From Chthoniobacteraceae bacterium (GTDB lineage Bacteria; Verrucomicrobiota; Verrucomicrobiia; Chthoniobacterales; Chthoniobacteraceae): a stretch of DNA of 64,000 bases. Each line of letters starts with the position of its first letter. Within the stretch, counting starts at the first letter, position 1. Position numbers and translations under genes: made by a program. Below, piece by piece: positions 55,422-64,000 of this stretch. The notes beneath the pieces were generated by a model. That model saw only the letters and a list, made by a program, of their open reading frames with translations, was not told the DNA's origin and did not search any database. Where the stretch lies: assembly GCA_037190965.1 (NCBI GenBank), contig JBBCKI010000072.1, positions 1 to 64,000 on the forward strand, given 5' to 3'.

Positions 55422-56450
55422 ATGGCAAAACCCCCTTCCTCAGCCATCGGCGTTGACCTTGGCAGGCACTCGATGAAAGCAGTGCTTCTTGCGCGCAAAG
55501 GCAATGGCCGTCTCTCGCTCACCCGCTTTGCCACGCGCGATTTGGCCGTTGAGCTCCATACCGCCGATGAACTGGCTGCCAACCTCAAGGCGTTGCTCCA
55601 GGAGCTGGGGGGGAGCGCAAAGGCCTGCGGGATCGCCATTTCTTCCTCCGACTCGTTTTTGCGCATTATCGAGCAGCCCGAGATGGAGCCGGAAACCCTG
55701 CGCGATGCACTGCGGTTCAACAGCCAGATGCTGCTTAACCAGGATTGCAAAGATTTTGTGCTCGATTGCGACCGGATCTCCGCCGATTCGTCCGGGGGAA
55801 ACAATGGGTCCTCGCGCTATATCGTGGGAGGCCTGCCGAGAGCGCAGGTGCAGGTGATCCATGACGCGTGCCTGAAGACGAAGACCCCGATGACGGCGCT
55901 GCAGCTCAGCCCAATGGCGGTTTTCAACGCATTCGAGTTTGCCAATGAGGAAACCTTCAATACCCAGGGGTTCGTCCTTGTCGATATCGGCCATCTCTCT
56001 TCAGAAGTAATTGTCGGGGCAAAGCGCGAGTTGATTCTGGCCCGAACACTTGGCTACGGCGGCAACCATTTTGTGGAAGAGTTGATCTGTCACGGGGCGT
56101 CGGGTCCCGAGGAGGTGGCTCAGGCGCTGGCCGAGGAGGAGGTGCTTACCATCGAGAATGCGCGGCTTTCGCTCACGGAGCTTGTCCGTTCGATCAGTTC
56201 CTCCATCGGATTCGTTGAGGCGCGGCATGAGGTGGCGATCCCGAGAGTTTTTATTTCGGGCGGGATGGCGAAGTCACCCGCGATTCTGAAGATTCTCTCC
56301 GAAGAACTGCAACTCCCGTGCGAAACATGGGACCCCTTTGCCAAATGCGAAGTCGCTGTTCCTGCGGCACGCAAGGAGGCGTTGGGAGGGCAGCTTCCGG
56401 TATTAAGCGCGGCCTGCGGGGCGGCGGCGGAAATTTTGAAAGGACGTTGA
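55422..56450 (+). CDS. pilM: PilM-like actin-fold type IV pilus/T2SS assembly protein
   Basis: Motifs IGVDLGRHSMKAV, VLVDIGHLSS and VFISGGMAK...DPF. Confidence 0.82.
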   Translation: MAKPPSSAIGVDLGRHSMKAVLLARKGNGRLSLTRFATRDLAVELHTADELAANLKALLQELGGSAKACGIAISSSDSFLRIIEQPEMEPETLRDALRFNSQMLLNQDCKDFVLDCDRISADSSGGNNGSSRYIVGGLPRAQVQVIHDACLKTKTPMTALQLSPMAVFNAFEFANEETFNTQGFVLVDIGHLSSEVIVGAKRELILARTLGYGGNHFVEELICHGASGPEEVAQALAEEEVLTIENARLSLTELVRSISSSIGFVEARHEVAIPRVFISGGMAKSPAILKILSEELQLPCETWDPFAKCEVAVPAARKEALGGQLPVLSAACGAAAEILKGR

Positions 56451-56459
56451 GGGGAACTC

Positions 56460-57119
56460 ATGGCGCTACATCTTAATTTTTATCACGAAATCCAGCGCGA
56501 AGCTCAGGCCCGGGCGCGGGACCCGGTGAAACTTGCAGGGTTGGCAGGAGCGGCGCTGGCGGTCCTGCTTCTCGCCTACTATGGCTACCGGAGCTACGCC
56601 GTGAGCCGTGTGGAGGCCAAGCTCGCCTCGGTCCAGAAAGAATGGAAACGGCTCGAACCGGCGCAGGCTGAGGCCAAGAAGCGCGAGGCTGAGCTTTTCG
56701 TTCTGCAAAAGAGCAACAAGGCATTGGTCGATCGTCTTCATGGACGCCTCTATTTTGCCCCTCTGCTTGACAAGATTGCGACAGCCACGCCCCCCACGGT
56801 CCAGATCACTTCGCTTGCCGCTGATTACGCCGATCCTGAGAAACCGGCAACGGTCCTGGTTTCGGGCATCGCCGCGGGGCTCCAGCCACGGAGCGCCGCC
56901 GAGGCATTTCGTCTTGCGCTGGAGAAAGAGGTTTCAGGGCAGTATCCGAAAGCGACCGCCAGCTTCGACGCCAACTCACTGGAGGAGGCTGAGGAGAATA
57001 TCGAATGGAGCGGGGAATCGCTTCACACCGCCCGTTTCAAAATTCGGCTGACGCTTGAGGGTCGTCCGCCAGCAAAAGAAGAGGCACCCCCGGCCCCCAA
57101 GAAAGCGAAAACCAAATGA
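56460..57119 (+). CDS. PilN-like protein
   Basis: N-terminal HLNF (an INLL-like motif), a TM segment, a coiled coil and a ferredoxin-like domain. Follows pilM. Confidence 0.7.
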   Translation: MALHLNFYHEIQREAQARARDPVKLAGLAGAALAVLLLAYYGYRSYAVSRVEAKLASVQKEWKRLEPAQAEAKKREAELFVLQKSNKALVDRLHGRLYFAPLLDKIATATPPTVQITSLAADYADPEKPATVLVSGIAAGLQPRSAAEAFRLALEKEVSGQYPKATASFDANSLEEAEENIEWSGESLHTARFKIRLTLEGRPPAKEEAPPAPKKAKTK

Positions 57120-57676
57120 ATCTGACCAAGGAACAACTTCAGAAGGCCGCGCTGGGAGTGGTGCTCGTCCTTGTCGCCCTGTATGCCTATTTCAGCATGC
57201 TGTTGGGGCCGCTCGGAGCGCGGGAGAAGCGGGCGCAAAAGGCGATGGACGCCCTTGCGCCGAAGATGAAGGAAGCAAATACCCAGATTACCCGGACCCG
57301 CTCCATCGAAGCCGAAGACCCATTTGGAGCGGCGGCTGGAATCGCCCGGGAGGCAATGGCGACGCGCATCCCCGACGGGGCTGCCATCGTCTGGTTGCCG
57401 CAAAGACTCTCGGAGTTTTTCCATAGCCAAGGAATCAAGAAGATTACCTCCAAAGCGGAAGCCGAGCAGGATGATCTTAGCTTGCCGGGCTACCGCCTTT
57501 CGACCTGGCAGGTTAATATCGCCGAAGTCGAGTTTGTGCCTTTTGCCGCTGCCATCGCCGCGATGGAGAACCAGGAGGGCTTGGCACAGATCACCTCCCT
57601 GCGGATTGAGACCAATGCCGCCAACGTTCAATTCCAAAACGCCAGCCTGAAGTTCTCAACCCTGGTTAAAAAGTGA
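57116..57676 (+). CDS. PilO/GspM-like protein
   Basis: TM segment, coiled coil and ferredoxin-like C-terminus. Translationally coupled to the pilN-like gene. Confidence 0.68.
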   Translation: MNLTKEQLQKAALGVVLVLVALYAYFSMLLGPLGAREKRAQKAMDALAPKMKEANTQITRTRSIEAEDPFGAAAGIAREAMATRIPDGAAIVWLPQRLSEFFHSQGIKKITSKAEAEQDDLSLPGYRLSTWQVNIAEVEFVPFAAAIAAMENQEGLAQITSLRIETNAANVQFQNASLKFSTLVKK

Positions 57677-58125
57677 AAATCCTCTCTTTTCTTTCCCTGC
57701 TGTCATTGGCTTTTGCCGTGCTTCCCGCCAGCGCTCAAACGGTTGAAGATCTTCAGATCAAAGAGCGGTCGTTTTTTACGGCGTCAACGGCCAGAAATCC
57801 GTTCTTGCCTGTCGGTTGGGCAAAGCCTGAGCCAATCGTTCCTACGGTGGGTAAGCCTGTCAACCCGACGGCCGTGGTGTCGGATGCATTCTTCAAGCCG
57901 GAGCGCTTCGTGGTGACCAGCATTTCCATCGGCGCGCTTCCGCTGGCCTTGATCAATGGGAAAACTTACGGCGAGGGCGACCTCATTCCCGTGGAGGCCG
58001 GGATCAACGTGCAGGTCTATGCCATTCGCGACGGGGAAGTGACTTTGCGTTACCAGAGCAAAACGATCGTTTCGGCGATCCAGAGCGCGGAGGCCAAGAA
58101 GCAAAGGCCGAAGCCGAAGCATTAA
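57673..58125 (+). CDS. PilP/GspC-HR-like exported protein
   Basis: RNPF motif, Pro-rich linker, and beta domain LALINGKTYGEGD...VYAIRDGEVTL. Confidence 0.68.
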   Translation: MKILSFLSLLSLAFAVLPASAQTVEDLQIKERSFFTASTARNPFLPVGWAKPEPIVPTVGKPVNPTAVVSDAFFKPERFVVTSISIGALPLALINGKTYGEGDLIPVEAGINVQVYAIRDGEVTLRYQSKTIVSAIQSAEAKKQRPKPKH

Positions 58126-58230
58126 CGAGCGGAGCGGCCTACTTCATAAAAATCCGCCGCGACTTGCGCCGGGGGGCCAATCGCCCCTATCGTTGGGTTC
58201 CTGTCTCCCAAGCCAGATTCCAACAACGAT

Positions 58231-59565
58231 ATGTCGCCTTCTCTTGAATCTCTTTTCGACTTCACCCGGTTTCAGAGCATTTCCGCCGATGCGAATTACA
58301 CCCCGCAGGTGGCGGCGTGTGCGGAATGGCTGAAAAGCCGTTTCCTTGCCATGGGGTTGGAGGCGAAGGCGTACCCGACTGCCGGGCATCCTGTGGTGCT
58401 GGCGCGCAATGTGCCGAGGGCGGATCGTCGCACAGTGCTCATCTACGGGCATTATGATGTGCAACCGGCGGATCCGCTCAATGAGTGGACGACACCTCCC
58501 TTTGAACCTCGCGTGGAGAATGGCATGATCTATGCCCGGGGCATTGCCGACAACAAGGGGCAGATCATGGCGCACATCCTTGGTGTGGAGAAGGCGCTGG
58601 CCGAGAAGGGGGATCTCCCCGTGAACGTGATTTTTCTGGTGGAAGGCGAGGAGGAAATCGGCAGCGGGCATCTGGAAGCCTTCCTCAAGGAGCATCGTGA
58701 GGCGTTGAACCCCCATGTGATCGTCATTTCTGACACCAGCATGGTCGCGCCCGGCGTCCCTTCGTTGGACTATGGGTTGCGGGGTGTTCTGGCGATGGAG
58801 GTTCGCCTGCATGGCGCGGCGACGGATCTGCACTCCGGGAGCTACGGCGGGATCGCGCCGAATCCCGCGATGTTGCTCGCGCGGCTTCTCGCAACGCTTC
58901 ATGACGAGCAGTTCCGTGTGGCGGTGCCGGGCTTTTATGACGCGGTCATTCCCGTTCAGGATTGGGAGCGGAAGGAGTGGGCTCAACTGCCGATGAGCGG
59001 GGAGGAGGATTACAAGAATGAGATCCGTTCTCCCTCCCTTTTCGGGGAGGCGGGATACACGCCGTTGGAGCGGCTCTGGGCCCGGCCCACGGCGGAGGTC
59101 AACGGAATTGGCGGCGGATACCAGGGGCTGGGAAGCAAAACGGTGATCCCGCGCGAGGCCTTTGCGAAGCTGACCTTCCGGCTCGTTCCCAACCAGACCC
59201 CGGAGGAGATCGAGGAGAAGGTGATCGCCCATCTCAAACGGCATTGCCCACCGGAGGTGCGGCTGGAGATCAGCCCCGGGCATGGCGGTGCACCGTTCTT
59301 GTGCGATCCGAAAGGAGCCAACAGCCTGGCCGCGGGTCGTGCGGCAATGCGGACCTGGGGTCAGGATCTGGCACTGATCCGGGGCGGGGGTTCGATTCCG
59401 ATTTTGCAGACTTTCCAGCGGATTCTCGGCGTCGATATCCTGCTTATCGGACTGGCGTGGCCGGGGTGCTGCGCGCATGCTCCCAACGAAAACTTCCCCG
59501 TGGAAAGCTTCGAGACCGGGATCCGCTTCAATCAGGCGTTGCTGGAAGAGCTAGCCGCAGGGTAG
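58231..59565 (+). CDS. M20 family dipeptidase
   Basis: Motifs YGHYDVQP, ARGIADNKGQ, EGEEEIGS, DLHSG, GGSIP and HAPNE. Confidence 0.94.
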   Translation: MSPSLESLFDFTRFQSISADANYTPQVAACAEWLKSRFLAMGLEAKAYPTAGHPVVLARNVPRADRRTVLIYGHYDVQPADPLNEWTTPPFEPRVENGMIYARGIADNKGQIMAHILGVEKALAEKGDLPVNVIFLVEGEEEIGSGHLEAFLKEHREALNPHVIVISDTSMVAPGVPSLDYGLRGVLAMEVRLHGAATDLHSGSYGGIAPNPAMLLARLLATLHDEQFRVAVPGFYDAVIPVQDWERKEWAQLPMSGEEDYKNEIRSPSLFGEAGYTPLERLWARPTAEVNGIGGGYQGLGSKTVIPREAFAKLTFRLVPNQTPEEIEEKVIAHLKRHCPPEVRLEISPGHGGAPFLCDPKGANSLAAGRAAMRTWGQDLALIRGGGSIPILQTFQRILGVDILLIGLAWPGCCAHAPNENFPVESFETGIRFNQALLEELAAG

Positions 59566-59639
59566 CGAGGGCGCGGGAATTTTGCGCGGCGGGGGCAATC
59601 TCGCCGTGCGCCGCCGGGGCGGGTTCTTACGCTCGTGGC

Positions 59640-61595
59640 ATGATTAAGACTGCGTTGACGCTGACAGGGGATCAATTGCAACGGATGGCCCGCTATGTGC
59701 GCCATCGGATCGAGGGGATCGAGGCCGCCCGGAGCCATGGGTGGATTGCCGACCGCGAACGGTTCGACCGGGAGTGGAACGATGACTTTTCGCACAGGAG
59801 CCGGGAGAGTGCGGTTTTTGCGAAGTCCAACGAATCGCTGAACATGGTTGGCTCCGGGGTTGACTATATCCGCTCCCGGATCATGGAGGAGATCTTCGGG
59901 AGCAAGCCGTGGTTTTCCGTCGATTCGAAATCGCGCCGAAGCGGCGGGGCGGCGCTTTCCGATCAGGTGGCGCGGCATCTCCGCTGGAAGCTGGGTCAAG
60001 ATCAGATCAACTTCGAGGGAGTGGCGGTCGATCTGATCACGCAGGCCTGCAAGATGGGGGAATGCGTGGCCAAGATTTTTTACAAGACTGACGAAGAGAG
60101 CTTCGAGCGGATTGCCTCGATTTTGTGGGATACGGAAACCGCTTCGCCGGTACTGACCCCGGAGGGCGATTTTATTTTTGAGGAGGACGCGCATCTTTCA
60201 GGGCAGAGGAGTGGCGAGTCTGAGGCGGAATGGAGACCGGGGCAGGAGGGTTCCTCGGCGGCGCCCAAGCCGTTGCCACCCGGAACCTGCTGGAAGGAGC
60301 AGATTGTCTCGGAGCACCGGGTCCATTACACCGGGGCGAAGGCGGTGCCCATGCACTTCAAGGACTTCTATTGCCCCTTGAATGCGCCCTCGATCCACGA
60401 GGCCGACTTTGTGGCGCACAGGACTTCCATGCGTCTGTCGGATTTGTGCAGGCATCTCGGCATTTCTCCGGAGACTTTCGCTGACCGAGGGGAGGAGAAC
60501 TATCTCGCGCGGGCCTTGGAGCAAATCCGACGGGCGGGCGCGCGCGCGGAGACGGGGGCGGAACAGCCGCGGGCGGGAGAAGGCGAGGAGCCGGATGCCG
60601 CCGAAGCCGATCCGGAGTTCCGGCTGGTGGAGGCTTACTTTCAATTCGACGCGCGGGACGATGGCCGCTCCTGCCGGATCTTCATGATGATGGCGTATGA
60701 CTTCGATCTACCCATCTTCTGGGACTACAGCGCCAACGTGACTCCGGGCGGACGCTATCCGTTCGAAGCCGTGGTCATCAACAAGGAGCCGCATCGTTGG
60801 TACGGGAAGAGCTGGTTCAAGAAGTACGAGAAATTTCAACAGTTGATCGACAAGCTCCTCAATCAGATCCTTTATCGAAATGAGCTCGCGGCCAATCCCG
60901 TCAAATTCCGTCGCAAGGAGGCGGTGGTGCAATGGCAGGATGATCAACCGTTCGAGATCGGACCGGACAAGGTGTTCGATCTCAACGACGGCTACACCGC
61001 TGACGACGCCTTGCAGACGGCGAAGATTCCCGAGTTGGACGAGCAGACGAAATATCTCCTTGAAACCGTGGTGTCCAGTTGGCGGACCCGGTCGGGAGTG
61101 ACGACGGCGACACAGGGGATGTTCGGCGGTCTCCCCTCGGAGCATACCGCCACGGGGGTGGCGCAGATCGTGGAAAGCGGCACCACGATCTTCAAACCAC
61201 AGGTCCTGGACATCAAGCGGGGTTTGGAGGCCGTGCTCAGGCAGTTGGTGACGCATCAGTATACCTGCCAAACGACGGACGAGACGTTCACGTATATGGA
61301 GGGGAATGAACGTGTCCAGGGGACGCTCTCCTGTGAAAGCGTGCGCAATCTGGATTTCAATATTGAACTGACTTTGACGCGCGCTCGCCAGATCCGACGG
61401 CTTGAAGCCGCGCGGGTGGGGGCGGAGTTCTTCAGTAAATTCCTGGCCGTTCCCGACGAGTTCAAGCCGGTGGCGGCTCCGCTTTTCGCGACGATTTACA
61501 AGAACCTCGAAATCGACAACGCCGACGACTATTTCCGGCAGGCTGTCGAGATTGCCCGGGAGCGGGACAATGAAACGAAGGAGGCACGCGCGTGA
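59640..61595 (+). CDS. Phage portal protein, podovirus (P22-like) type, orphan
   Basis: Portal-type motifs in the expected order: IFGSKPWFSV, ACKMGECVAKI, DFYCPLNAPSIHEADFVAHR, YPF...PHRWYGKS, QQLIDKLLNQI...NP and SGV...G...TATG. 651 aa from the ATG at 59640. Confidence 0.8.
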   Translation: MIKTALTLTGDQLQRMARYVRHRIEGIEAARSHGWIADRERFDREWNDDFSHRSRESAVFAKSNESLNMVGSGVDYIRSRIMEEIFGSKPWFSVDSKSRRSGGAALSDQVARHLRWKLGQDQINFEGVAVDLITQACKMGECVAKIFYKTDEESFERIASILWDTETASPVLTPEGDFIFEEDAHLSGQRSGESEAEWRPGQEGSSAAPKPLPPGTCWKEQIVSEHRVHYTGAKAVPMHFKDFYCPLNAPSIHEADFVAHRTSMRLSDLCRHLGISPETFADRGEENYLARALEQIRRAGARAETGAEQPRAGEGEEPDAAEADPEFRLVEAYFQFDARDDGRSCRIFMMMAYDFDLPIFWDYSANVTPGGRYPFEAVVINKEPHRWYGKSWFKKYEKFQQLIDKLLNQILYRNELAANPVKFRRKEAVVQWQDDQPFEIGPDKVFDLNDGYTADDALQTAKIPELDEQTKYLLETVVSSWRTRSGVTTATQGMFGGLPSEHTATGVAQIVESGTTIFKPQVLDIKRGLEAVLRQLVTHQYTCQTTDETFTYMEGNERVQGTLSCESVRNLDFNIELTLTRARQIRRLEAARVGAEFFSKFLAVPDEFKPVAAPLFATIYKNLEIDNADDYFRQAVEIARERDNETKEARA

Positions 61596-61861
61596 CGCCG
61601 GAACAGAAGATGGAGCGGGTGGCCGAGATCGCTCAGGAATTGACGCTGCTCAATCGTCTGCCCGCGGAAGGGGCGGCGATTCTGGACCGCGAGCTGGAAC
61701 GGCTCGTGGCGTTTCATACCGAGAAATGCTGCGATTGCAGGCTCCCGCCCGAGCAAAGCGCGATGCACCGGGAGGCCCGTGCCCTCGCGCGCGGTCTGCT
61801 CGGGTTTTTCGACAAGCGGAAGACCGCGCTCAAGGACGAGTTGGGCCAGTTGCGGCGATAG
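61592..61861 (+). CDS. 89-aa helical hypothetical protein coupled to the portal gene
   Basis: The GTG start overlaps the portal stop (GTGA), with a GGAGG RBS and host-like codons. Confidence 0.75.
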   Translation: MTPEQKMERVAEIAQELTLLNRLPAEGAAILDRELERLVAFHTEKCCDCRLPPEQSAMHREARALARGLLGFFDKRKTALKDELGQLRR

Positions 61862-61918
61862 GTACAGTAACCACTCCGGTTGGAACAGCCGCTTCGGCAG
61901 CAGGCTGCGTTGTCAACA

Positions 61919-61948
61919 TCAAGCTGTTATCTACGGATAGCAGCTTGA
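61919..61948. terminator. Hairpin between convergent genes
   Basis: TCAAGCTGTTATC-tacg-GATAGCAGCTTGA, a 13-bp stem with one G-U pair. Confidence 0.6.
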
Positions 61949-62008
61949 GTTTCCTCCTTGCCTGGGAAAAGAATCCGGCGGTCGACGCGACTCAGCGTTG
62001 ACTGGATA

Positions 62009-63916
62009 CTAGATCCCGTTCCTCCTGCGGCGGAGCAGGAACGCTGCAAGAGCCGCGCTTCCGGTCAAAGCCCACGTCGTCGGTTCAGGCACCGCAGCCA
62101 GGATCGTATAACCGCCAAGATTATGGTAGCCGGTGTAGTTATACGCGTCGCCTTCGTTCAGGAAATAGAGCGCTTCGAAGCCGCCGGTGTCGGTCGTGAC
62201 CCAGGCATCGCCATCCCAAACCTGGAAAACTCCTTGACCAAGGAGAGTTGTCAGGTCGGAGCGGCGATCGCCATCCCACGCGAAAAAGCCGCCATCGAGG
62301 CGCAGGAGATTATTGGTGCCGCCATTCTGATTCATAACAAGGTTGCCGCCGAGGGAAAACAGCGCCTTGTCCGCGATCGTAATGGTATTGTCACTCCCGA
62401 AATTTCCGAAAGTCAGGTCCCCGGAGTTATTCCAGATGGAGCCCTCTCCGGTCACAACAACAGTATTATTCTTTGCATTGGCATTCGATTCACCGATGCC
62501 GGTGCTGCCGCTCTCCAAAAGGGCTCCACTTTCAACCTTCAGGCTTTGCCAGCTGGAGAAGCTTCCGACACTCAGGACCGTCGTGCTCCAGGAGGTTCCC
62601 TCTCCTTTTACCGTGACCGAGTGCCCGGTTCCCGAATAACCGACCGTTCCGGTTCCGCTCGTCACGGTAGCTCCGTTCTGGATGGTGATGGAGTTGGATG
62701 TCCCGGACCGTGCGCCAAGCTCACCGGAAAGAGTCACCTGAGTCCCCGGTCCCGTGATGAGAATCGAGTTGTTCACTGCCCTAGAGCCTCCTCCAGCACG
62801 AATAATGGCTCCGTCTACCGTAGCACCGTCTTGAATTGTCAATGTGTTGTTGGGCCCGGCCTCTCCCACTGTTACCGATCCGGTGAAGGAGGTGCCAGTG
62901 CCGGTAATGAGCATGGAGTTTGAAGAACCAAGCGTACCGCTGGCAATGAGGGTGGCGACGCTTGTGGAACTCACGACGACCGCCCCATCCTGGATGGTCA
63001 GGGAATTTCCTGTGCCGTGGCTACCGACCCGGAATCGACCGGTCGTGGTGATGCTGGAACCGGATCCACTCACCACGATCGAATTGCTGCTCCCCCTGAC
63101 GCCGTCATTCCCTCCACCAACGTAAATATCACTCGCGGAAGTCCAGGAACCGCCATCTTCGATAGTCAAGGAATTATTGTTCCCGAAAGCGCCGATTTGA
63201 TTGGCACCGTAATTGGTAGTTACCAAGGTAGAGCCGGAGCCTGAAATGAGGGCCGTATTGTTCTTCCCTCGACCGGCGGTATTGCTGTTGCCCCATCCAA
63301 CCACGAAAGACGAGAAAGTCACTGAGGCTCCATCCAGAATCTGCAACGAGTTCGAATCGCCCTCCTGCCCAATACTGGCATAAGTACCCGATAGAACCGT
63401 GCCGGATCCCTTCACCGTCACCGAATTACCGTTCGAACCCAGATTGTAACCGGCTGAAAGCCCTATATTGGAAGACACCAGCCCGAATCCGAAATACCCC
63501 CCATCCTCAACCGTCAAGGAGTTATTGCTCCCATTGTAGCCTATTAAAACGTTGCCGTTCCCCGCAAAACGGGAACCCTCCCCGGTAACCTTGAGCGAGT
63601 TTCCCCCGCTGGTCTGGTTATATCCGAGGCTCGCCAAACTGTCTCCCACCACGGCGGAGCCGTTGCGAATAATCAATTCATTGTAGGATGTGGTGCTTCC
63701 CGTTGTCATTGCGCCGGAAAAAGTTTTGGGAAACGCTTCCGTATCTCCAATGATATATTGTGCCTTGTCTACCTCTGTGCCTCCTGAATTCATAAGCTCT
63801 GGCACTGAGTTATCCACGCTGACAATTCCTGCATGGGCTGGAGTCATAATCGAAGACACCGCCAGGGAACTGAGAGCGAGGGTTACAGCAAAGGCACGAG
63901 AGGAAATTGAATTCAT
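62009..63916 (-). CDS. PEP-CTERM protein with T5SS/PEP-CTERM-associated beta-helix repeats
   Basis: Signal peptide ending AHA, about 10 repeats of G-x-G-x-N-S-L-T-I-x-D-G...N-x-x-x-V-x-G-x-G-S, and C-terminal VPEPTTWALTGSAALAAFLLRRRR. Confidence 0.92.
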   Translation of the reverse strand: MNSISSRAFAVTLALSSLAVSSIMTPAHAGIVSVDNSVPELMNSGGTEVDKAQYIIGDTEAFPKTFSGAMTTGSTTSYNELIIRNGSAVVGDSLASLGYNQTSGGNSLKVTGEGSRFAGNGNVLIGYNGSNNSLTVEDGGYFGFGLVSSNIGLSAGYNLGSNGNSVTVKGSGTVLSGTYASIGQEGDSNSLQILDGASVTFSSFVVGWGNSNTAGRGKNNTALISGSGSTLVTTNYGANQIGAFGNNNSLTIEDGGSWTSASDIYVGGGNDGVRGSSNSIVVSGSGSSITTTGRFRVGSHGTGNSLTIQDGAVVVSSTSVATLIASGTLGSSNSMLITGTGTSFTGSVTVGEAGPNNTLTIQDGATVDGAIIRAGGGSRAVNNSILITGPGTQVTLSGELGARSGTSNSITIQNGATVTSGTGTVGYSGTGHSVTVKGEGTSWSTTVLSVGSFSSWQSLKVESGALLESGSTGIGESNANAKNNTVVVTGEGSIWNNSGDLTFGNFGSDNTITIADKALFSLGGNLVMNQNGGTNNLLRLDGGFFAWDGDRRSDLTTLLGQGVFQVWDGDAWVTTDTGGFEALYFLNEGDAYNYTGYHNLGGYTILAAVPEPTTWALTGSAALAAFLLRRRRNGI

Positions 63917-64000
63917 AGTCACTGAGAAACTCTCAGATTTTAGAAAACTGCGCCGCGTGGGGAAGAAAATTCCGGCATGCCTCTGGGGATGGTGTATCGA

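Follow-up and report, generated by a model that had tools for sequence, protein, structure and literature searches.

The window analysed here is a 64,000-nucleotide stretch of contig JBBCKI010000072.1 from a Chthoniobacteraceae bacterium (Verrucomicrobiota; assembly GCA_037190965.1). It belongs to contig C72 of the source genome, G000 (4.2 Mb, 97% complete), and near its end it carries a portal operon formed by a gene for a phage portal protein and a small gene coding for 89 amino acids (aa). Our results suggest that this operon is probably one locus of an independently domesticated and vertically inherited set of phage-derived genes, hereafter the kit, predicted to encode a gene transfer agent (GTA)-like particle that would be filled with host DNA and released by lysis. 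Throughout, G-numbers denote genomes and C-numbers contigs (those of G000 unless a genome is given); g1, g8 and g17 are the sister genera that carry the kit.

The original prediction described at this locus an uninterrupted open reading frame (ORF) with the motifs of P22-like portals. The 651-aa ORF was indeed open throughout, and its product matched SU10_portal of Pfam (E 6.5e-26, 91.3 bits, cut-off 30) and a PHROG family with an E of 3.9e-21. When an AlphaFold2 model of the protein (pLDDT 76.9) was compared by Foldseek, all of the matches listed were portal or portal-tail entries, with N4, Pa223, DEV and SU10 on top (E 6e-17 to 1e-14, TM ~0.5). The identity as a portal and the expected fold were thus borne out; membership in the SU10/N4-type family, for which the Pfam cut-off is exceeded and the portal fold is matched, is more exact than the P22-like label. 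An alternative longer frame from 59244 runs into the upstream peptidase gene, and the homologues start at the ATG at 59640. Where the records with homologues are named, they belong to Chthoniobacteraceae, Spartobacteria or Verrucomicrobiota. The GC content of the portal gene equals that of the window. The codon style was host-like, as had been noted (among 3,145 genes, the portal and 89-aa genes rank at percentiles 57 and 71 for codon adaptation), but this is weak evidence alone, given that an unrelated lambda-like terminase in G000 stands at the 52nd percentile.

The 89-aa gene overlaps the end of the portal gene, and the predicted structure of its product is all-helical (pLDDT 96), both in agreement with the coupled helical ORF that had been proposed. 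It directly follows the portal gene in 16/17 chromosomal loci, the 17th being truncated by a contig end, and H-x-E-x-C-C-D is invariant among its homologues. One homologue also follows the portal of a prophage in G002; the protein is phage-derived, and its position suggests a role in head assembly. It had no Pfam or PHROG family and no usable Atlas match, BFVD gave nothing at E<=0.001, and the best VIA match (Z 7.3) corresponded to generic helical bundles. BFVD pointed weakly to a JWAlpha protein of 123 aa, equal in size to the product of JWAlpha's post-portal gene; hhalign supported neither this lead nor homology with the post-portal genes of related viruses.

An assembly join inside the operon had been considered as a possible source of error. 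One contig of sequencing run X1, which may be the source of the assembly, covers 56500-61302 without difference and a second one covers 61279-64000; these overlap by 24 nt only. A chimeric join is nevertheless unlikely because the orthologues are collinear along the full protein.

Kit genes on other contigs and their shared upstream motif

An alignment of 44 portal homologues was used to search viral contigs and gave 20 viral loci. The ORFs of these loci and of five whole virus records of 60-65 kb were searched against G000, which revealed a head operon on C66 and a large terminase (TerL) gene on C56 (Table 1). The head operon is flanked by host genes that read, by inspection, as bioF and ptsI. 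A search of G000 with PF03237 gave no terminase, and TerL surfaced only through the ORFs of related phages. Single-protein pattern scans of the viral contigs found nothing with the portal or with the major capsid protein (MCP) of the prophage, and five loci with TerL. The TerL motifs, which we take to be ATPase- and nuclease-like, were identical in 10/10 rows including the prophage, bar three conservative substitutions. The fibre-lysis cassette on C51 was located through the related prophage of G002; its endolysin matched phrog_9589 (E 6e-10), with a CHAP match under the Pfam cut-off. A weak match of the prophage small terminase (TerS; E 0.087) led to a TerS-like candidate, which aligned with it over the C-terminal 46 columns only (hhalign probability 72%, E 3e-5), lacks the N-terminal region of the prophage protein and had no TerS family match in PHROG or Pfam.

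The kit is thereby spread over at least five contigs of G000 among housekeeping genes. The portal operon had been described as stand-alone, and this holds within the window, where tblastn with all ORFs of five related phage genomes detected no other phage structural genes (8 window proteins were scanned with Pfam, and no search for att sites or tRNAs was made); against C72, the same search returned the portal and a weak match (E 5e-5) at a helicase gene. It does not hold for the genome, in which isolated terminase and capsid genes, named as search targets in the original prediction, lie on C56 and C66, together with scaffold, adaptor and lysis genes elsewhere. While an intact prophage has contiguous replication and morphogenesis modules, the modules of the kit are separated among host genes.

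Table 1. Features of the portal operon and its flanks, and of the other kit loci in G000; positions without a contig number refer to the window.
Feature	Location	Strand	Basis or remark
Portal protein, SU10/N4-type, 651 aa	59640..61595	+	PF23899, phrog_1216, Foldseek to N4/Pa223/DEV/SU10 portals
89-aa helical protein, coupled to portal	61592..61861	+	Overlap with portal at GTGA
Three-box upstream motif	59576..59634	+	Weight matrix from relatives
M20-family peptidase, not part of the kit	58231..59565	+	Pfam PF01546
Stable hairpin between convergent genes, without U-tract	61915..61951	+	16 pairs
Head operon: scaffold-like, MCP, 121-aa gene, adaptor-like	C66:16107-20329		MCP: PF13252, phrog_334 (N4-gp56-like)
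Large terminase (TerL)	C56:1417-3222		phrog_2, E 2.5e-12
Fibre-lysis cassette: two fibre-like, holin-like, spanin-like, endolysin	C51:6731-10129		Holin and spanin labels by inspection
Small-terminase-like (TerS-like) candidate gene	C30:19890-20354		C-terminal match to prophage TerS
Small phage-derived genes	C64:74251-74888 and C19:97239		

The gap between the peptidase and the portal, confirmed as 74 bp, is filled by a three-box motif that also precedes the scaffold and TerL genes. Box A (59576-59587) is followed after 16 nt by box B (59604-59610), and this, after another 16 nt, by box C (59627-59634), a -10-like TAnnnT element located 5 nt from the ATG. A position weight matrix (PWM) was trained on 30 upstream regions from relatives only, leaving G000 out, and the A-B spacer was 16 nt in 30/30 of these sequences. 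Among 3,260 upstream regions of G000 (median score -1.9, 99th percentile 10.5), the portal ranked first with 29.0, the highest score in the 4.2-Mb genome, followed by the scaffold (28.7) and the fibre-lysis cassette (25.8); TerL was sixth (17.5), C19:97239 ninth (15.7) and the TerS-like gene tenth (15.4). The motif was not upstream of the C64 genes. No sigma-70 consensus promoter was detected in 59400-62200. Because the -10-like box lies 5-7 nt from the ATG, the transcripts starting from this motif may be leaderless. High scores were also recorded at C29:87592 (before a response regulator gene, 23.9) and C2:90708 (before an aminotransferase-like gene, 20.3), which could be chance sites or members of a host regulon.

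An IUPAC pattern of the motif gave 19 matches in 5 genomes, 7 of them ahead of kit genes. In G036 the motif proved predictive, as it pointed to a cassette of fibre, chaperone-like, holin-like, spanin-like and GH108 endolysin genes that a homology search with the CHAP endolysin had missed; the fibre has an N-terminus like that of the prophage fibre and a C-terminal LamG domain (PF13385). Overall, 12/17 genomes yielded fibre and/or lysis cassettes by way of the motif search; the endolysin is CHAP-like in g1 and GH108 in g8. Of the 23 motif matches at E<=0.053 in 8 genomes of g8, 22 lie ahead of a portal, scaffold, fibre or TerL gene, and most of the portal sites among these 22 were close to training rows. 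The g8 cassettes (L163, L297, L299, L302, L303, L306) keep the N-terminal fibre domain and swap C-terminal domains and lengths (423-571 aa); most follow the same host gene, and GH108 in g8 versus the CHAP-like enzyme in g1 amounts to replacement of the lysis module under a kept promoter. One endolysin copy, in G001:C1, sits in a separate prophage-like stretch and was excluded from the cassette count.

A second element, a 13-bp palindrome, precedes the operon of a 98-aa, a 107-aa and the TerS-like gene in 12/12 loci in which all three are linked. In G000 it precedes C64:74251 and C19:97239 (regions C64:74156-74888 and C19:97222-97460), with 2 perfect sites among 5 matches with <=1 mismatch and none for the reversed-pattern control. 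The 98-aa gene is also present in G003, G004 and G021 and not in G174 or the outside genome G024, and the C19:97239 gene in 4/5 genomes tested; no Pfam match was obtained. The palindrome operon is a candidate early or regulatory tier, and we hypothesize a two-tier control in which a repressed early operon is followed by activated late operons.

Two other roles raised in the original prediction, a portal repurposed as a channel and a lone decoy, are disfavoured because the genome has kept, along with the portal and under the same motif, capsid and lysis genes and a motor that are intact.

As for the flanks, the peptidase is absent from the portal neighbourhood in all 16 other annotated loci and was rejected as a kit part, being a host gene and a chance neighbour; a 150-aa ORF located 5' of the portal in several relatives was also rejected, as a host gene of shifting position. 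The terminator-like hairpin proposed at the end of the operon was confirmed as a hairpin, with a second one of 10 pairs at 61979-62004 (folding z of the region -3.75, 0/200 shuffles equally stable), but no U-tract terminator was called there. The convergent gene (62009-63922, minus strand) encodes a PEP-CTERM-tailed, Gly/Ser/Asn-rich repeat protein at the 4th percentile of codon adaptation, and a similar-looking 1,345-aa protein is encoded just past the window (C72:68480-72517). At 55422-58125, a PilM-like gene precedes three genes weakly similar to type II secretion or pilus assembly. Elsewhere in G000, a stand-alone 101-aa gene without the motif upstream (C30:103567-103872) has homologues in the early region of the prophage and, as the last gene of the head operon, in genomes of g8 and g17. 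Unrelated prophage pieces with lambda-like terminase, head and tail genes, identified by inspection, lie at C62:21845-43446 and C34:8700-37200, and the fibre N-terminus at C34:33400 resembles that of the g8 kit fibres.

Distribution, inheritance and related prophages

The portal, MCP and TerL genes were each present in the same 9/61 genomes. When 151 genomes of the family were searched, MCP was found at 80-93% identity in 17/17 genomes of g1, g8 and g17, and among the other 134 only distant copies were present (30-40% identity), in 3 genomes. The portal was also detected in all 17, and TerL and the TerS-like gene in 16/17 each, the latter in 0/134 of the remaining genomes. In G175, a single-contig genome, the head operon lies at 0.70, the portal at 1.26, TerL at 2.25, the TerS-like gene at 3.15 and the fibre-lysis cassette at 5.10 Mb. 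The dispersal is not an assembly artefact, because the loci are far apart in this contig; they are separated by 0.5-4.4 Mb, in accordance with the GTA property of being unable to package the whole genome. The genes that flank the kit loci vary among genomes, and TerL still adjoins the portal in G001, G002 and G005.

In an rpoB tree of 30 genomes, the 8 carriers with rpoB fell on one side of a branch with support 100/100. For 8 genomes, the portal, TerL and concatenated trees had 5/5 splits in common with the rpoB nucleotide tree and 4/5 with the protein tree, and the MCP tree 4/5 with each. The 17 chromosomal portals formed one group (SH-aLRT 100), separate from the prophage and virus copies, in a quick tree that carries a long-branch warning. 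Ratios of nonsynonymous to synonymous substitution rates (dN/dS) were calculated by NG86 as medians over unsaturated pairs. The values, to be read as rough, were 0.19 for the portal (35/36 pairs), 0.15 for the 89-aa gene (25/28), 0.14 for TerL (35/36), 0.095 for MCP (36/36), 0.26 for the scaffold (33/36), 0.19 for the 121-aa gene (24/28) and 0.29 for the TerS-like gene (119/120), compared with 0.06 for rpoB. The portal, TerL and TerS-like genes are under purifying selection.

Domestication, and not decay, had been proposed for the operon, and purifying selection, tree congruence, clade-wide co-occurrence and the shared motif all agree with it. The possibility that the loci are slowly decaying prophage remnants scattered by rearrangement seems to us very improbable. 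It would account for the loss or shortening of tail-side genes in some lineages, for the split TerL of G171 and for the failure to find TerL in G170, but the open frames, with dN/dS of 0.1-0.3 across dS 1-2, the clade-wide single copies, the congruent trees and the same motif before each separately relocated operon argue otherwise; selection and motif results already contradict decay.

A related temperate podovirus prophage was found in G002 (C7, ~92000-151453), beside the dispersed kit copies of that genome and at another site; at the portal site of the relatives, no full prophage was seen. It contains TerL, TerS, MCP, portal, an 89-aa homologue, a giant protein cut by the contig end, and RecT-like and DnaC-like genes, and its head and lysis modules are separated by ~16 kb of apparent host genes. 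The kit shares with it 53% identity in the portal, 77% in MCP and 65% in TerL; with the IMG/VR viruses G061-G065 (60-65 kb) the values are 23-30%, 34-42% and up to 37%, respectively. Prophage and viruses have the scaffold-MCP-adaptor order of the kit. In contrast to it, they are contiguous and carry the giant protein before the portal, and the prophage also has recombination and replication genes, a full-length TerS and late genes without the motif. Comparison of these sequences identifies temperate podoviruses of this group as the putative source lineage of the kit. This phage family has also left decayed remnants in G005:C83:42500-45400 and G005:C33:63700-66800 (TerS, the start of the giant protein, the adaptor and a broken post-adaptor gene). 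Two g1 genomes contain, by inspection, another podovirus-like prophage type that is unrelated to the first and has a portal, a small post-portal gene and a capsid of its own (G005:C60, L141, and G001:C113, L142).

This relatedness also bears on an anti-phage role, in which host head proteins and a sequence-blind terminase would divert or poison podovirus assembly and early lysis would abort the infection. The kit is near enough to the resident prophage in MCP and TerL to co-assemble, and a phage-encoded activator could recognise the motif. However, no motif was detected ahead of the prophage late genes in G002, its scores in the five related virus genomes were <=19, and all enzymes look intact instead of dominant-negative. 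We regard such interference as improbable.

The tail side and the predicted particle

In the related phages, a giant protein of 3,200-6,000 aa is encoded before the portal; it had no informative family match, and its size and position suggest a role in ejection. In g8, a 313-aa protein encoded after the adaptor and related to prophage post-adaptor genes is kept in 10/10 genomes. No nozzle was identified in the kit or in the related phages, most G000 proteins not having been scanned against phage families.

One reading of these data is that the kit makes tail-less, DNA-filled heads, to be completed by tails and ejection proteins of related temperate phages, unless their uptake follows some other route. 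The kit retains genes for head, motor, adaptor and lysis, the giant protein was found only in prophage copies, and related prophages coexist with the kit in G002 and, as a remnant, in G005; moreover, the tail-less capsids of phage-inducible chromosomal islands of the capsid-forming type (cf-PICIs) are described as completed by phage tails (bioRxiv 10.1101/2025.02.11.637232). On the other hand, the 313-aa protein and a fibre N-terminus matching the prophage fibre indicate that a minimal own tail may exist in g8, the shortened g8 adaptor would be a poor fit for docking phage tails, and the apparent lack of a nozzle says little when none was identified in related phages either. We consider this reading rather unlikely.

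Distinctly unlikely, in our opinion, are particles without gene transfer, acting in DNA export or biofilms, as receptor-blocking decoys or as PBSX-like killers, with packaged DNA as a by-product. PBSX packages DNA without injecting it (PMC12946183), lysis genes and lectin-like (LamG, PF13385) fibres are kept and vary between genomes, and ejection proteins were not found. Killers, however, usually need a tail, which is the least conserved part here, and purifying selection on TerL, portal and TerS-like genes points to selection on packaging itself.

We return to the GTA-like kit, which we hold to be the probable explanation and which, as the original prediction had suggested for a dispersed locus in Verrucomicrobiota, fits every test run. 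For head formation and packaging the gene set looks complete; together with the genes for adaptor, fibres and lysis it is dispersed, clade-wide, under purifying selection and placed behind one motif. According to this model, the kit would go back to a single capture event, by which the ancestor of this Chthoniobacteraceae clade acquired it from a temperate podovirus of the N4/SU10 type. A dedicated activator would switch on all loci jointly in a part of the cells; a prohead would be assembled from scaffold, portal and capsid, and TerL, with a TerS devoid of the phage N-terminal domain, would load host DNA into it irrespective of sequence. The adaptor would then close the portal, and the lysis genes would release the particles.

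Several observations weigh against this model. Regarding inheritance, TerL, besides being undetected in G170, occupies two different frames in G171; support for the split that groups G001/G002/G005 is weak (34-44); Mantel tests with rpoB gave p 0.04 for the portal and p 0.0008 for MCP, but no significant value for TerL (p 0.23); the g1 adaptor is the least constrained gene (median dN/dS 0.40, 10/10 pairs); and dS of 1-2, near saturation, is what makes the dN/dS values rough. Regarding the motif, PWM ranks 4, 5, 7 and 8 are not phage-like and a reversed-genome control peaks at 21.6-24.8, and for these reasons only the top three sites stand clear alone. With 150 motif candidates scored per genome, G005, G021, G171, G172 and G173 yielded no fibre-lysis cassette. 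Ahead of the TerS-like gene, the motif is present in G000 and, more weakly, in G021 and G004; elsewhere this gene is the last of a three-gene operon. The TerS assignment itself depends on the single 46-column match, PHROG places the protein in phrog_645, labelled 'Rnase E', and the TerS family phrog_51 was not found in G000. Finally, the tail side of the kit is reduced and variable: the prophage giant protein (1,367 aa available) is present in 2/20 genomes, both times as prophage or remnant copies, a search of G000 with 59 giant-protein windows returned a single weak match (E 5e-4), the 313-aa protein was not found in G000, G001, G003, G004 and G021, and the g8 adaptor is shortened to ~150 aa. 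Delivery to recipients is the weakest step of the model, given that neither a nozzle nor ejection proteins could be identified.

Comparison with known systems and significance

RcGTA is a siphovirus-like agent, and few independent GTA lineages are known. The kit derives from a phage lineage other than that of RcGTA. Like the GTAs described in PMC9662315 (RcGTA, BaGTA and VSH-1), it consists of caudoviricete-derived proteins encoded in the chromosome over several loci, and it is vertically inherited and co-diversifies with its hosts, as seen in 8 genomes with one weak split. The same source includes among GTA features caudovirion-like particles, mostly random host DNA and delivery to other cells; on this basis the kit is GTA-like in its genomic features, and particle, random packaging and delivery are predictions. 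A TerS without the N-terminal DNA-binding domain has been proposed as a feature of GTAs, as in gp1 of RcGTA (PMC6854486), and the TerS candidate of the kit likewise lacks the phage N-terminal domain. The kit differs from known GTAs in its N4-gp56-like capsid and SU10/N4-type portal of podovirus origin, in its Verrucomicrobiota host, in having no main cluster (TerL, the TerS candidate and the portal lie apart) and no complete tail identified, and in being known from genes alone.

The kit also resembles FpGTA of Faecalibacterium, a GTA candidate that, as presented in PMC12946183, is podovirus-like and has TerL, portal, scaffold and capsid, a TerS without obvious DNA-binding domain, and unproven delivery. 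FpGTA I is described there as a single 10.5-kb operon in a Gram-positive host with evidence for packaged DNA, and this description sets the kit apart. The cf-PICIs (bioRxiv 10.1101/2025.02.11.637232) also combine head and packaging genes, and their use of outside tails is a possible model for the kit; each of them is, however, one mobile island packaging DNA of its own, whereas the kit is immobile, single-copy and vertically inherited, dispersed over megabases and accompanied by lysis genes. The portal-less mini-viruses of PMC13669383 were considered for comparison and are not relevant. In the titles and abstracts covered (without subscription journals and supplements), there was no report of this system nor of a GTA in Verrucomicrobiota; supplementary tables of genome-wide GTA and prophage surveys, outside this coverage, could list kit genes.

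A bolder proposal, which we put forward only tentatively and judge to be on the unlikely side, is a host-owned, co-regulated head-only system that would make podovirus heads, pack them with random chromosomal DNA by means of a sequence-blind terminase and lyse the cell, having given up the ejection machinery. Delivery might then occur, with the same low expectation, through borrowed tails of related temperate phages or independently of tails via the lectin-like fibres. If true, this system would be a chromosomal, non-mobile counterpart of the tail-pirating cf-PICIs and a GTA type new to the literature covered.

A kit whose parts lie on separate contigs escapes prophage finders and cluster-based GTA finders, and the shared motif offers a way to list its parts as well as an experimental handle on the activator and the inducing condition. 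The G002 prophage is a near-ancestor with which to ask what domestication takes away; the features concerned are contiguity, the giant protein, the N-terminal domain of TerS and the late control exerted by the phage itself. Tail-less particles would pose a new delivery problem; if the particles transfer DNA, the kit would provide these bacteria with a dedicated route of gene exchange.

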